Source: Octopus vulgaris | Taxonomy: Eukaryota | Length of the DNA stretch: 64,000 nt | NCBI GenBank assembly: GCA_951406725.2 | Contig: OX597825.1 | Span: forward strand, 67,580,001-67,644,000 | Direction: 5' to 3' | Shown here: positions 2,541-42,035 of the stretch, one piece after another | Layout of the letters: every line of letters begins with the position of its first letter | Numbering within the stretch: the stretch's first letter is position 1 | Program-made: the position numbers and the translations under genes | Notes under the pieces: model-generated | The model's database searches: none | Told to the model about the DNA's origin: nothing | Seen by the model: the letters and a program-made list of their open reading frames with translations, nothing else

Positions 2541-3547
2541 ATGTTTCTTTATTAGCCACACAGGGCTGCACACAGATAGAACAAATTACAAGGTAGAGCT
2601 TTTCTTTTGAAGGTTTAAGAAAAAAAAAAAAAAAAAAAAAAAAGGAAGGGGGAGTTTCGATCAAAAGGGATCGTAAAAGGAGAGAAAGAGGACAAAAAAA
2701 GGGGGTTTAAAAAAAGGTGGGGAGGAAAAAAAATTGATCAATAGGGATCGTTATCACAGAAATGTCAATATGAAGTGTAAAGGGGAGGACAGGTGAGGTT
2801 TACCCGTGCAAAGAAAAGCCTACGGAAAAGACCACGGTAACCTCGGTCAATGATGTCACATTTTATATTTCTTTTTTTTTTTTTTGCAAATAAGCAACTC
2901 TCTGTTTTCGATTTCTGGGTTCATAGGACTATGCTCAAGGTGGCTTCGTCATTCATACGTACCATTCTTGCTACATTCACCCATCTTTTTTTAAAACATT
3001 CGCTAGACAAAACTTGCCTCTCTACTCTCACTTTCCTTTTCAAGTGGTACTTGAAGAAGTTGATGAGAGATTGACCAGAGAGGAAAGTGTTTGTCTCCAA
3101 TCCTTTCAGACGCGTCCACCAGATACATTCTTTCGCCATAGCCACAAGGATGATGAAAATAGCTCTTCCTTCCCGTTTGAAGGAAGGAGGCGTGACAATA
3201 TTGACGATAGACTCAGCTGATAAACCGACTCGTCCCACACGTGACAGCAGTTGTTCGACATAAGCCCACAGGTCGGAAATTGTTGGACACTGAACGAGTG
3301 CGTGCAGAACGGTTTCGTCGTTCTGACCGCATCTCGGGCAGGTCGGCCCCGTGTTTCTCGAGCCGTGTCTGTAGAGCTTATCCCGAACGGGTAGCGCTTC
3401 TCGGTAGCACTGCCAGGCCAGGGATCTCTGGAAGTTGTCCATGGGCCCTGGCCCGAAAGTCGTCCTGAACAGGCGGGTCAGGTACTCCTCGTCGACGTCC
3501 AGGTTCGCCCCGAGCTCGTCGTCGTACCTCCCTCCACTAAACCCCTA
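2541..3547 (-). mobile_element. 5'-truncated Tx1/L1-clade non-LTR retrotransposon (ORF2 C-terminus with zf-RVT plus 3' UTR)
   Basis: ORF 2921-3442 has ALPVRDKL...CPRCGQNDETVLHALVQC and ECIWWTR motifs; AATAAA near 2550 on minus; (GATA)n on both sides. Confidence 0.85.
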
Positions 3548-36030: not shown

Positions 36031-36353
36031 GTGGATTAACTGTTGAACTGGACGGACGTCTATTTGTTTCTCTCCGAGTCAGTAGCAAGCTACACAGCTT
36101 CAAAACTAACTGACCTTAAATATATATATATTTGTAACCACGTGTTTGCCTACAAACCCGTAAGTACGTTTTCATTTAACTACAAATTGTTATATACACC
36201 TGTTTTTCTTTTAATATCCTCAAACAACCAAATAATCAAAAACTCACACCCTTAAGAGAGAACATTTATATATATATACACTTCTTTAACTCCCAAGAAA
36301 GAATATATATATTTTCAAAAATCAAAAGGAAAACAAACAAAAGAAAAACAAAC

Positions 36354-37607
36354 ATGACTAACTTGCAGGCCTGCAACAGACGAAATTGGTCTGATAACGA
36401 AATTGATGTTTTAATAAACACATGGCTCTCTCTTTCCCAAACAGAAAATCTAAATGTCTTGTGTTTGAATGAGATTGCCGAAAAAACATCACAAGTGGTC
36501 AACACACGATCCGTCAAACAGATTCGTAGCAAGTTGAAACATATCGAAGTATCTTTCAAACTGATAAGAGGCCATTATGAAAAGCTTCTACATATTTTCA
36601 CAGTTCAAGAACAACAACAGCTAGAAAATCAGCAGCCACAACAACAACAACAACAGAATGAGCCACTCCTGGTTCCTAGCACAATGGCTGACCCTGACAT
36701 CGGTCAGGCACAACAACAACAACAACAGCCACAGCAACAAGAACAACAACAGCCACAGCAACAAGAACAACAACAGCCACTCCTCAACTCTAGCTTACTA
36801 GACGATTCACTAAATGCCAGTATCTTTTCACCGCTCTCACAGCAACCACCACAATTATCATCATCATCATCACCACCGCTGCCACCATCGTCTTCTATCA
36901 CCAAAAATACCAACAGAAAACCAAATAAGAAACCACTGCCCTCTTCCCCCACATCACCACCTCAATACTACTGCAGTAACAAAAACTTAAAGAAACATAG
37001 GAAGCAGAATGCGCCCCCCACGGCACAAACAAGAAATCCCCAAATATGCCGCTATTCACTGCGCCAGAGACTCTGCACAAATAGTGACTGCATCTTCACG
37101 CATCTACCCGGCACTAGACGCACTACCGGCCAAGGCCAAAGCACGCATCCCACAATAACATCAACACCACCAAATAGTAAATCGAAATTCAAAACACACA
37201 CAACTCGGAGTCCCAAAATCTGCCGGTATTCCCAACGTGAGAGAACATGTCTACTGAGTGACTGTCCCTTCACTCATCTTCCAGGGACCCGACGCACAAA
37301 CAGAAACGGGGCCTCAAGCCAACACACAAACCTGAATAACAATAAAAATAGAAACACACCATGCTGCAGTAATGCTGGTCCAGTCTTTTCAGGAAGACAC
37401 AAAAACAACAACAACAAAAGTGGAAACTACAACCCTATCCAACAGTGCAACCACACCTCCAGCCAAAAACTGCTCCCTAAGCAGGAAAATTCTTTTTTAG
37501 CCATGTTGAACATGGCAAAAGAGATACACAAAAACATTCTAGCCATCACTCAACACCATCCTATGCTATTACCCCAGTGCACCAATTCCCCACATTGCTG
37601 CCACTAA
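36354..37607 (+). CDS. LINE ORF1: Myb/SANT(trihelix)-like N-terminus, polyQ, Pro/Ser linker, two CCCH zinc fingers
   Basis: NWSDNEIDVLINTW...EIAEK...RSVKQIRSKLKHI; CRYSLRQRLCTNSDCIFTH and CRYSQRERTCLLSDCPFTH; 417 aa intact. Confidence 0.85.
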   Translation: MTNLQACNRRNWSDNEIDVLINTWLSLSQTENLNVLCLNEIAEKTSQVVNTRSVKQIRSKLKHIEVSFKLIRGHYEKLLHIFTVQEQQQLENQQPQQQQQQNEPLLVPSTMADPDIGQAQQQQQQPQQQEQQQPQQQEQQQPLLNSSLLDDSLNASIFSPLSQQPPQLSSSSSPPLPPSSSITKNTNRKPNKKPLPSSPTSPPQYYCSNKNLKKHRKQNAPPTAQTRNPQICRYSLRQRLCTNSDCIFTHLPGTRRTTGQGQSTHPTITSTPPNSKSKFKTHTTRSPKICRYSQRERTCLLSDCPFTHLPGTRRTNRNGASSQHTNLNNNKNRNTPCCSNAGPVFSGRHKNNNNKSGNYNPIQQCNHTSSQKLLPKQENSFLAMLNMAKEIHKNILAITQHHPMLLPQCTNSPHCCH

Positions 37608-39180
37608 CACACACAAAAAATCCAAGCCCCCTGCAACAGTCAAAACCAGCCACTACACTAACCTCCACATTCCTACTCAATGCACAAGGTGTCAGCCCTT
37701 CCATCAATGCACAAAAATGGAAGGTCCAATTCATTGAAGACTGGGTTGGTAACCATTCACACCACATCCCTTTCTTCATTCTCACTGAGACCCACCTTGA
37801 CAACTCCCACTTGGAAGCCGAAGTGAGAGTGAAGAATTTCACAACCATCCGCGCGGATCGTATCGGCAGGAGGAAGGGTGGAACTGCCATTTTCCTGCAT
37901 GATTCATTTACGGCAGATGGAAATAGTATATTCTCCAACGGCTACTGTGAATCAGTCACCGTGCACAACAAAGCCAATGATCTGACAGTAATTGGGCTCT
38001 ATAGGCCGCCCCAAACACCCATACTGTGCTTTAAGGAATGCCTCAACAGCATTAAGTGCTTTATTCAACAGTGCCATTCTAGCAACATACTCATGATGGG
38101 AGACTTCAATCTACCCTGTGTTGACTGGACTACAAACTGTTTGAAACCAAGCACTCCCGCCTCAACCGCTGACAAAGAAGCAGCAGAGTCACTTTTCGAC
38201 TTTACGAATGAGTTTTTCTTGTCCCAACTTGTCCTTGCACCAACAAGACATCAGAACATTTTGGACCTAGTGTTTAGTAACCACACTAACACTATACATA
38301 ACGTTACAGTGGAAAAAACCCTTCTTTCAGACCATGACATGGTTCTCTGTAACATGAAATTCCACCAGCCGAAAGCTAATCCTAGTGACCTTCCTCCAGC
38401 CCACCCATTTGACAACATGGATCTCCATAAAGCCAACTGGGATGCAATCAGGAACGAGCTATCAAATGTTGACTGGTCCTTTACACATACACACATCTCC
38501 ACCAACCATAAAACATCTTGGCAGATCTTTGTAGACACCGTCACAGACATATGTGCAAAACACTCCCCACCAAGACCTGTGAACAAAAAGTGCAGAATCC
38601 CCCAAAACAGAAAAACCATTATCAGAAAAATAAAAAGAACAAACAAAAAAATTAACAAACTAAAGTACTGCCAACAGCAACACACACATTCGACGGCTAT
38701 CGCACTGCTTGAATCCAAAAAATATAACCTCCAACAATGCATGAAGTCCCTCATCAATAACCAAAGATCAGCTGAGGAGAAGTGGGCCATTGAAAAAATC
38801 AAACTCAACCCCAAAGTGTTCTTTTCATTTGCGAGGAAACGCAGGGTCACTATCTCCACTGTAGGCCCTCTAATTGACGAAACTGGCACTCTCCAAGATA
38901 ATGCCAAATCCATGGCCGAGATACTGCAGAAACAATACTGCTCTGTTTTCAGCAATCCTGATATGGCCGATCTGGGCTGTATCAGTGATGTCAACCCCCA
39001 ACACACTATATCGGACATAACGTTTAGTGCCCCTGATGTCTTAGCGGCGATAAACGAAATAAAACACAATTCAGCAGTAGGCCCCGATAGGTTCCCTGCT
39101 TGTGTCCTGAAGGTGTGTCGACACCAACTTGCATCTCCCCTTGCTAATCTGTGGAGAAACTCACTGGATGCTGGCTATAC
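37481..39180 (+). CDS. LINE ORF2 N-terminal part: APE endonuclease, linker and start of RT
   Basis: LNAQG, LTETHL, RADR..RKGGGT-like, GLYRPP, MGDFN, PTR..NILDLVF, SDH motifs; SAVGPD..PACVLK; frame open from 37481. Confidence 0.92.
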
Positions 39181-40095
39181 ATCATCAAGCACAGCAACAT
39201 AAAAATCTTTGCAGATGACTCCAAGCTACAGAAGGTCATAAATGAGGCGAGTGACCGGACATGCCTTCAGTCAGATCTACTGGCTGTTATCCAATGGGCA
39301 GAAAAAAACAATATGCTGCTGAACGAGGATAAATTTGAGCTAATCCACTTTGGAAAAGAGGATGCCCTGAAACTCCCATACTCCCTTCCTTCAGGTGAAA
39401 CTCTCGCGGCGTCCAACAACATCAGAGACTTGGGAGTAATTGTGGACAACAACGTAAGCTGGGCCACTCATATAAACACCAAAGTTGACATGGCCTGCAG
39501 AATGTGTTCCTGGATTCTCAGAACTTTCCAGTCGAGAGATATCCACACCATTATCCTTCTCTTCTCCACTTTTGCCCGACCCCACCTTGAATACTGTTGT
39601 CCACTGTGGTCTCCCCACACAATACAAGGTATCATAAAAGTCGAAGCACCTCAAAGGGCAATCACAAAAAAGATAGATGGCATGACAGGCCTCGACTATT
39701 GGGGTCGACTAGAAAAGCTAAAACTCTATTCTCTCCAACGTCGTCGTGAGCGCTACATCATCTGCATGATGTGGAAAATATTCCATCAGCATTGCCCAAA
39801 TGATGTTGGCATCACCTTTAAGGTACATCCAAGGCTTGGGCCCCGTGCCATCCGCCCAAAACAAAAATCGCACTCTCATCTCATAACAACAATACGGCAC
39901 AATTATTTCACCTCAATTGGCCCCGCTCTCTTTAACATTACACCAAAACACATTAAAACAGAAACTGACCCTATAGGGTTCAAGAAGTCTTTGGACAGAT
40001 TCCTTCAAGAAATCCCGGATAAACCCCCTACACCCGGATATGTCTCTGTAAACAATAACTCTCTACTTGAGTGGGCCATAGTGCCCAAATTCTGA
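39181..40095 (+). CDS. LINE ORF2 C-terminal part (RT FADD onward), frameshifted by the deletion
   Basis: IFADDSKL, LQSDL..W, RDLGV, RPHLEYCCPLWSP, LKLYSLQRRRER. Confidence 0.92.
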   Translation: MIKHSNIKIFADDSKLQKVINEASDRTCLQSDLLAVIQWAEKNNMLLNEDKFELIHFGKEDALKLPYSLPSGETLAASNNIRDLGVIVDNNVSWATHINTKVDMACRMCSWILRTFQSRDIHTIILLFSTFARPHLEYCCPLWSPHTIQGIIKVEAPQRAITKKIDGMTGLDYWGRLEKLKLYSLQRRRERYIICMMWKIFHQHCPNDVGITFKVHPRLGPRAIRPKQKSHSHLITTIRHNYFTSIGPALFNITPKHIKTETDPIGFKKSLDRFLQEIPDKPPTPGYVSVNNNSLLEWAIVPKF

Positions 40096-40181
40096 CTTGA
40101 AAGACTTCACCAGGTGGTGCTATTAAGTTAGACATGGCCTGGGCCAATAATGGCCGAAACCTATCAAAGTATCAAAGTAAG

Positions 40182-40446
<265 letters not shown>

Positions 40447-41634
40447 TTATATATATATATATGTCTGTATCTTCCACTCTCTCTCTCTCTCTCCCTCTTT
40501 AACTCACTCACACACTAACTTCTCTCTACAAATTGAATTCCGTCTATTATAATTAGTCGTGCATAAAATATCTCTGTTGTTAGGTTTTGTACTTTTCCCC
40601 TGAAAAATAATTTAGCTATTTTTAATTTTTGTTTAGCCAGTGTGTTTAGATTCAGTTTCGCTACATTTGCCTAAAATTTCACTTCAGTGTATTCCAATTT
40701 TGTCGTGCGTAAATATCTGTCTTTACGGTATTTGTGGGTACTCTTTACAACATTACTTTACTTACTTTCAATTTTTGCACTCCGTCTATTTAAATACACT
40801 GTTTACATATCTCCCTCTATCGAAGAACGTTGAGCGTCCGATCATGTATGCGAACGGATGACCGCTATGGGCTATATACAGCCGATAATATTTCAATTAC
40901 TGAGCGGGCATGCGTTAGAAAAAGCTATCCTAAAGCGGTTCAAGTTTTTACACTCAAGCTATTTTTTTCTAGAAAATGGGGTTTGTAAGTTTTGCCTACA
41001 ACTTGACTTCCATGTCTATATATATGAAATTCTTTGTCGGTCTATGTGTTCCCTATGCATTCACAAACGGTTCAACAAAATCAAATTAAATTTTACAATG
41101 TAATAGCATCAGACCCCATAAGTGTCAACATGTATTTTTTTTTCATTTGGATTAAAACAGAATACCATTGGCACTGGTTCGGTATTACGTTTCAAAATTG
41201 AAATAATAAGATGTATATTGTAATGTCTTATAATATTATTTCACTTGTATTCTTTCATTTTTCATGCTAAGCTTATATTATTTCTCAGAGCGAATTATAA
41301 TATTGTTATACTTTTAATATTGTTACACTTTTAATCTTTCACTTCTGATTCTACTGTGATAAATAAATGAATAAATTATGTCCTAATGTGAACAATATTA
41401 TGCATCGGTAACCTTTCGTCTTTATCCTCCATGGCAGCGGCTTGGTGTATCAGTGTATGTCCGTTGACTGACATAACGAACGGCTGGAGGTGAAACTCTT
41501 GACAAAAAACAATTACGTGGCAGGTCCAAGGTCTACAATAATACACATTTACCGTTCAATTACCAGTTCATAATTGTCGCAGCAGTTGCAAGGTTGCAAG
41601 TTATTTACAATTACATATTTACCCTTAAATTAAC

Positions 41635-42035
41635 GGAGTCTCAATAGAGAAGGGAGATGAGACTTTCCTGTGATCAGCAAAGGCATGCTACACCACGTCA
41701 AATTGAGTGTCAAGGGAGAAGTGGGTTGAGACATTCCCAACGTTAGCAAATGCATGCAGTAGCACATCAAATGGAGTCTGAAGACAGAAGCGATATGAGA
41801 CTTTCTCAAGATCAGCAAACATATGCTGCAGCACGTCAAATGTAGTCTGATGAGAGAAGGGTGATGAGATTTTCCCAACATCAGCAAATGCATGCTGCGG
41901 CACGTCAAATGGTTTCTCAATAGAGAAGCGAGATGAGACTTTCCCAAAATCAGCAAAGGCATGCTGCAACATGTCAGATGGAGTCTGAAGAGAGAAGTGA
42001 GATGAGACTTTCTCAAAATCAGCAAAGGCATGCCC
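41635..42035 (+). repeat. 69-bp x ~6 minisatellite encoding decayed 23-aa STPR-like repeats (Helitron Rep/Hel N-terminus-like)
   Basis: gagact-like anchor at 41659, 41728, 41797, 41866, 41935 and 42004; + frame ESEERSEMRLSQNQQRHAATCQM with stops. Confidence 0.75.

Follow-up and report, generated by a model that had tools for sequence, protein, structure and literature searches.

LINEs have been argued to require far less ORF2p than ORF1p (passages of PMC3894237), and the portions of reviews that deal with animal LINEs list reinitiation, coupling, IRES elements and 2A sequences as routes to ORF2, with frameshifting absent. Elsewhere among non-LTR elements, the relevant section of PMC5911963 states that a -1 frameshift is needed for ORF2 in Dictyostelium TRE5-A and TRE3-A, which are of the APE type. 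Excerpts of PMC2718515 describe Drosophila R1B ORFs that overlap in the -1 frame by 14–59 bp, and in part of the literature HeT-A is described as having a frameshift within gag. TRE5-A, TRE3-A and R1B belong to other clades and carry other ORF1s, and those parts of the sources give no slippery site or test, whereas for the present element a site is specified and was checked for conservation. The original prediction for the present locus held that an ORF1-ORF2 fusion made by -1 frameshifting is atypical for non-LTR elements; this agrees with the reviews but has to be qualified by the statement already made for TRE5-A and TRE3-A. We found no description of a slippery site in CR1-group LINEs in the open-access literature, which does not extend to earlier subscription-only work on the CR1, T1/Q and TRE elements. 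The main text of an ORF1 survey (PMC4120745) mentions neither CCCH, Myb, frameshift nor overlap, the available sections of a vertebrate survey (PMC13343379) mention neither frameshift nor overlap, and those of PMC10294476 do not name the clade described here.

The element lies in a 64,000-nt stretch of Octopus vulgaris DNA (the window) and belongs to a family that we call A. Its features are as follows.

36032–40184, + strand: CR1-type LINE copy, family A, within a (TA)n microsatellite
36032–36353, + strand: 5' UTR, with a 5' end common to full-length copies
36354–37607, + strand: ORF1, 417 aa in the window copy and 409 aa in copy L034
36378–36572, + strand: Myb/SANT-like domain of ORF1 (Pfam PF13837, E = 2e-5, under the curated cut-off)
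37047–37103, + strand: CCCH-type zinc finger 1 (weak Pfam PF14608 match, E = 0.096; Cys/His invariant in 62 ORF1s)
37221–37277, + strand: CCCH-type zinc finger 2 (from sequence; Cys/His invariant in 62 ORF1s)
37478–37480, + strand: TAA, last stop of the -1 frame, directly after which the ORF2 frame opens
37481–39179, + strand: ORF2 frame, with linker, APE endonuclease and start of the RT region; first ATG at 38093
37484–37490, + strand: second in-phase heptamer, G_GAA_AAU (GGA-type), not kept in other families
37493–37499, + strand: slippery heptamer U_UUU_UUA, predicted -1 shift site
37494–37550, + strand: predicted C-terminal helix of ORF1p (AlphaFold2 helix 159–177), beginning at the shift-site Phe and missing from the predicted transframe product
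37500–37516, + strand: 7-bp hairpin, family-specific and without spacer; also complementary to 3' UTR positions 40118–40138
37595–37600, + strand: near-cognate TTG and CTG codons in the ORF2 frame, 10 and 7 nt upstream of the ORF1 stop
From about 37661, + strand: APE endonuclease (Pfam span 37727–38335)
39179/39180, + strand: breakpoint of a deletion of about 515 nt private to the window copy, with most of the RT core gone and the frame shifted
39180–40095, + strand: C-terminal part of ORF2 (RT end and C-terminal region)
40096–40184, + strand: 3' UTR, with the GGYGGTG...TGGCC motif found in most relatives, a terminal hairpin and a short 8-nt tandem repeat tail

Comparison with six longer copies places full-length family A elements at about 4.65 kb, sited in (TA)n tracts. 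An intact 1043-codon ORF2 frame with its first Met at codon 205 is present in four of the six, and the 8-nt repeat tail in all six. The tracts flank both the start and the end of all six (L031–L036; 36032 and 40184 in the window), and targeting to microsatellites is possible. In the 2.8-Gb genome, 40 of 40 scored copies, the top 40 by score among 892 candidates, show 100% identity across 37250–37850, and by this sequence measure family A is a very young LINE family. The 1043-aa ORF2 frame of L034 matches Pfam APE models (PF14529/PF03372) and then RT (PF00078), with no RNase H family at E ≤ 0.1. The two CR1-group traits tested are thus both present, namely APE followed by RT without RNase H, and a short tandem-repeat 3' tail in place of poly(A). 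The layout is CR1-like, and the label is based on domain layout and on motifs characteristic of the group. The 64-kb window has no Rfam match. The stretch is present in assembled contigs from eight sequencing runs, which shows presence only, as the RNA status of those runs is a guess; no RNA data set is recorded as containing it. Elsewhere in the window, the minus strand at 2924–3544 encodes 207 aa with a C-x2-C...H...C motif that resembles the C-terminal zinc knuckle of L1/Tx1-type ORF2, and this ORF is probably a piece of a different LINE. A degenerate tandem repeat of about 60 nt with minus-strand open frames occupies 41630–42030.

The junction between the two ORFs reads much as originally described. 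The heptamer U_UUU_UUA lies at 37493–37499 in ORF1 phase, where the codons are TCT TTT TTA (S-F-L) and the pattern is X_XXY_YYZ, 12 nt into the -1 frame. The claims that ORF2 follows TAA 37478–37480 in the -1 frame without an ATG until deep in the endonuclease (38093, codon 205, in ILMMGDFN downstream of the ETHL motif), and that the transframe peptide would be ENSF[L/F]SHVEHGK, match the sequence as well. ORF1 stops at 37605–37607, giving an overlap of 127 nt. Throughout the 417 codons of ORF1 only two in-phase heptamers occur, U_UUU_UUA and, 9 nt upstream, G_GAA_AAU. When the overlap is shuffled, a strict in-phase heptamer arises by chance in 12% of cases, and within its first 30 nt in 3.5%. 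The heptamer in one copy alone is weak evidence, and it is strong only through relatives.

A search of the same genome with a degenerate endonuclease pattern gave 2,221 matches (4 for the control), from which families A2, B, C, D, E and F were taken (endonuclease identity 27–67%); a marine metagenome search added 14 loci, 13 of them at 36–50% endonuclease identity. Many genomic copies are 5'-truncated and were left out of the junction comparison, which covers 19 junctions, one per subfamily, picked from copies with an intact site. The heptamer is in phase in 18 of these 19 chosen junctions, the exception (L069) having a private indel; in its subfamily, A2, the exact heptamer is found in 17 of 20 copies and the open -1 frame in 16 of 20. 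In every family with a preserved junction, a -1 ORF2 and an in-phase heptamer are both retained, as the prediction would have it, in relatives at 35–66% endonuclease identity from this genome and from marine metagenomes. The heptamer sits 0–63 nt after the -1 frame opens and 112–301 nt upstream of the ORF1 stop. Its type is U_UUU_UUA or U_UUU_UUG in A–E and metagenome family M6, A_AAU_UUU in F and G_GAU_UUU in M1–M5, and all 12 metagenome junctions have one (11 G_GAU_UUU, 1 U_UUU_UUA). With duplicate loci removed, an intact site remains in 3 of 4 copies of B, 18 of 22 of C/D/E, about 8 of 10 of F, 17 of 20 of A2 and 12 of 12 from the metagenome. Missing sites are single-copy substitutions or gains or losses of T, and occur in single old copies (for example L058, L060, L063, L099, L106, L112 and L193). 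An extra T in the run is found in single copies L060, L198 and L207, and in L060 it places ORF1 and ORF2 in one frame. No ATG precedes the endonuclease in the -1 frame of A, F or M1–M6, and linker ATGs occur in B–E and A2. A quick endonuclease tree, built from unnamed relatives only and without reference elements, resolves four deep lineages: A/A2/B, M1–M5, M6 and C–F.

At greater distance, the junction signature is absent in 16 LINE fragments from prokaryote bins (22–38% identity, many of them short or broken), two of which (L138 and L144) have an ORF2 that starts with ATG. Such endonuclease/RT fragments in bacterial and archaeal bins (L135–L157) are most likely eukaryotic contamination, and the viral contigs searched contain no relative. 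We considered the N-terminal Met of database ORF2 entries as evidence of an AUG start and rejected it, as the 'M' of P0001 is GTG in the matching locus L082. A further CR1-type family, G (L161, L181–L183, L208–L210; 284 pattern matches in the genome), is unrelated and has a different ORF1. Its ORF2 overlaps ORF1 by about 230 nt in the -1 frame with a first Met at codon 302, and two in-phase heptamers, G_GGU_UUU and G_GGU_UUA, lie 90 nt apart in the three copies read.

Two tests bear on whether the constraint acts on the RNA. Given the amino acids and the element's own codon usage, the probability of a slippery heptamer is 0.003–0.31 per junction across the 19 junctions, and the product for one member from each of the four deep lineages is about 4e-6. 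A control motif in the same copies, G-D-F-N, uses GAT in 8 of 17, TTT in 6 of 16 and GAT-TTT together in 4 of 17, and therefore synonymous sites have turned over. The switches between heptamer types are compensated: N-F follows a codon ending in A, D-F follows a codon ending in G (E, Q or K), and S/T-F-L is written NNT TTT TTR. In the second test, the protein of the ORF1 tail was held fixed and its codons resampled, which predicts 22.5 stops across the -1 frames of 12 families against zero observed (product P = 3e-12 for the 12 families, 2e-4 for the four deep lineages and 0.23 for family A alone). Both tests point to RNA-level constraint on the heptamer and the overlap. On this evidence, the junction is a real and conserved recoding signature, and the original prediction appears right about the frameshift.

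The protein encoded at the shift site is itself conserved. A search with the single ORF1 sequence found no relatives, and a profile search was needed, which returned 1,571 proteins at E ≤ 1e-10 (50%-identity representatives). When family A is aligned to 61 of the 150 relatives listed, the shift-site Phe is invariant in 62 of 62 ORF1s at 16–25% identity; at least two other relatives (P0211 and P0234) do not have it. Directly before this Phe, a residue whose codons cannot end in U (E, Q, K, M or W) occurs in only 5 of 113 tails (out of 118 usable ones), compared with 26% in the linker. Because the site also encodes a conserved helix start, this count is confounded by helix capping, and we therefore take it as consistent with the proposal, not as proof. 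The distance from Phe to the helix differs by one residue among proteins (7 in 21 proteins, 8 in 20).

The ORF1 type of family A, Myb/SANT plus CCCH, falls outside the CR1 types described (esterase, PHD-RRM, RRM-CCHC and transposase-22), and relatives have PHD plus CCCH; it could belong to the 'type V, unclassified' of the ORF1 survey (PMC4120745). A Myb/SANT-like N-terminus occurs in both A (L034) and F (L128), though these are in different endonuclease lineages, and metagenome families (L087, L090) have PHD fingers N-terminal to the CCCH fingers. This distribution suggests exchange of ORF1 modules between lineages. The database relative P0020 (a cluster of five), known as a protein sequence only, carries CCCH fingers, APE and RT in a single ORF, which indicates that a fused ORF1-ORF2 architecture is present in the database. 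Long in-frame N-terminal extensions on ORF2 are seen in P0020 (CCCH fingers), P0042 (OTU-family match) and P0048 (PF00645 match), and also in P0043 and P0038.

Several other explanations for this arrangement have to be weighed. Under the main rival, termination-reinitiation, ribosomes would stop at the ORF1 TAA at 37605 and restart at TTG 37595 or CTG 37598 to yield a free ORF2p, a process that could coexist with frameshifting and is the one given for SART1 and L1 in the relevant parts of reviews (PMC5972666, PMC10275272). In 19 of 19 junctions the ORF1 stop does lie close to the first strand of the endonuclease, at a distance of -7 to 74 nt from its conserved Asn. Families A–F have either a near-cognate codon or an ATG (the latter in C1 and C3) at -10, and A2 has an ATG at -7. 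However, in C–F the -10 codon merely corresponds to a hydrophobic residue of the endonuclease strand, no near-cognate codon lies within 20 nt of the ORF1 stop in the metagenome junctions M1b, M3 and M4, and a UAAUG-type stop-start is absent, as is any AUG near the ORF1 stop of family A. Reinitiation also leaves unexplained both the in-phase heptamer with its compensated switches and a -1 frame that is free of stops over the 112–301 nt upstream of the ORF1 stop, and we regard it as unlikely. The idea of a copy-specific indel in the T-run, with one fused ORF in the master element, draws on the T gained or lost in single copies of other families (L060, L106, L058, L198, L207) and on P0020 as a one-ORF relative. 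Yet 40 of 40 family A copies are identical, without a fused ORF or an ORF2 ATG, and the offset is the same in every family examined; the idea is refuted for family A, and we assign it a practically negligible probability.

If x-F-L were kept solely as a helix cap or start, ORF2 could begin by internal or non-AUG initiation within the overlap. The predicted helix indeed begins exactly at the Phe, and the residues found before it (S, D, T and N) are typical helix N-caps. IRES-like initiation has been discussed for LINE ORF2 (a passage of PMC3894237). Protein constraint cannot fix synonymous bases, however, and slippery sites make up 18–19 of the 19 chosen, whereas the control motif reads GAT-TTT in 4 of 17. 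The one-residue variation in the Phe-to-helix distance would be unexpected for a purely structural residue, and the overlap shows no conserved RNA structure, so that we consider this account highly improbable. Splicing, in which the ORF2 frame would be attached to an upstream exon through a 3' splice site formed by the pyrimidine run and AG at 37490–37500, is more improbable still: the U-rich tract and AG are found in A, A2 and M6, but the AG is missing after the tract in B, C, D, E, F and M1–M5. Moreover, no joint ending at 37500 appears in contigs of the eight runs, whose RNA status is guessed and which drop rare forms. The -1 shift at the heptamer, fusing ORF1 to an AUG-less ORF2, is the reading favored by the layout, by its recurrence in four deep lineages and by the changes of heptamer type.

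The part of the original prediction that finds no support is the role given to the hairpin as an HIV-like stimulator. The structure is present (-10 kcal/mol; z = -3.4 for the 18-mer), but it starts at +1, has no spacer and is not conserved, the norm between heptamer and structure being 5–9 nt (as given in part of PMC5009743). The sister subfamily A2 retains five of the seven pairs, two through changes on both sides, and the hairpin is missing in all other families (B–F, M); the claim made for it is probably wrong. Outside family A, local folds downstream of the heptamer are unremarkable, and consensus folds of the 100 nt downstream reach -0.2, -3.0 and 0 kcal/mol without two-sided changes. An alternative family A fold starting at +5/+6 (-10.8 to -11.3 kcal/mol, z = -0.8 to -1.9) was set aside as unremarkable. 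No H-type pseudoknot is shared: matches occur in 2 of 19 junctions, and for each of these, 2 of 30 shuffles do equally well.

Pairing with the 3' end was also considered. In family A, 37500–37517 can pair with 40118–40138 over 17 bp (-19.7 kcal/mol, in the top 0.1% of windows), starting at +1 and in one of 56 settings. A 14 × 14 matrix shows no cognate advantage for 3' UTR pairing, other families give no such signal, none was found between the family G junction and its own 3' end, and A, A2 and B share one 3' UTR core but differ in the sequence behind the heptamer. Pairing with the element's own 3' end is strong in family A only and seems not to be a general stimulator. The 3' UTR motif GGYGGTG...TGGCC and a terminal hairpin are kept across families at 35–50% protein identity (window 40113–40177; L077, L081, L084, L085, L115–L134, L212–L217), and the tails beyond differ among families (8-mer, 4-mer or A-run, the last in family E). 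The unrelated family G likewise ends in TGGCC, which makes this motif more likely a 3'-end signal for reverse transcription. No conserved frameshift stimulator is visible.

Because the heptamer is in frame and the -1 ORF2 mostly lacks a start codon, the copying enzyme is likely made by ribosome slippage. We judge it very probable, from sequence comparison, that low-level -1 frameshifting at the heptamer yields an ORF1-ORF2 fusion with a predicted length of about 1,410 aa. Most ribosomes would finish ORF1 and produce an ORF1p with the C-terminal helix and a Q/P-rich tail, and a minority would slip by -1 after 374 residues and read 1,037 more (numbered on L034). The slip would be a tandem one, by tRNA-Phe and tRNA-Leu on U_UUU_UUA and by the Asn/Phe or Asp/Phe tRNAs in relatives. 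The fusion would be ordered as Myb/SANT, CCCH fingers, a flexible linker of about 55 residues, APE and RT. As the C-terminal helix begins at the very residue where the shift would take place, the fusion would lose that helix; shifted ribosomes would exchange it for linker, APE and RT, and ORF2p would therefore carry Myb/SANT (or PHD) and CCCH fingers. The shift is probably of low efficiency and driven mostly by the heptamer, since a conserved 3' structure was not found, and low efficiency would suit a LINE that needs many ORF1p and very few ORF2p.

How far this extends is a more tentative matter. We see an even chance that a large invertebrate clade of the CR1 group with CCCH-finger ORF1s makes its RT as a Gag-Pol-like fusion, by a structure-free -1 shift at interchangeable heptamers, so positioned that the enzyme takes the place of the C-terminal helix of ORF1. 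With family G included, -1 frameshifting may be a major route to ORF2p across the CR1 group. If so, ORF2p of this clade would be a fusion bearing its own RNA-binding fingers, annotations that begin ORF2 at an internal Met or GTG would be wrong, and the elements would not be 'broken by a frameshift'. Animal cells would also harbor a large repertoire of natural -1 shift sites that seemingly work without 3' structure. A defined 7-nt site makes translation of a LINE ORF2 addressable with one reporter.

Set against known systems, family A shares with the CR1-group LINEs of the Jockey superfamily an ORF2 of APE and RT, no RNase H match and a short tandem-repeat tail, and the clade differs from them in an ORF1 built of Myb/SANT or PHD, CCCH fingers and a C-terminal helix. 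Like SART1, which uses UAAUG coupling, and mammalian L1, with its unconventional reinitiation, it would express ORF2 at a low level from a bicistronic RNA; unlike them, in the accounts excerpted from PMC5972666, it has neither a stop-start nor an inter-ORF spacer, and instead a long open overlap with a conserved heptamer. Measured by the features of canonical -1 frameshifting, an in-phase heptamer in the overlap is present and ORF2 has no usable AUG, and a conserved stem-loop or pseudoknot at 5–9 nt is absent. Low-efficiency shifts seemingly without 3' structure that still make an essential protein are described for tailed phages, influenza A and closteroviruses in sections of PMC5009743, with sites and hosts different from those of family A. 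According to the same sections, the G_GAU_UUU of its relatives is the shift site of pea enation mosaic umbravirus. Compared with HIV-1 gag-pol, family A is a non-LTR element that lacks the 5–9-nt spacer with its conserved stem-loop and lacks a protease to process the fusion, and the heptamer type varies across its clade. What it has in common with gag-pol, as that is set out in part of PMC5009743, is the same U_UUU_UUA in the same phase, a -1 overlap with the polymerase and, as predicted here, F/L heterogeneity at the shift.
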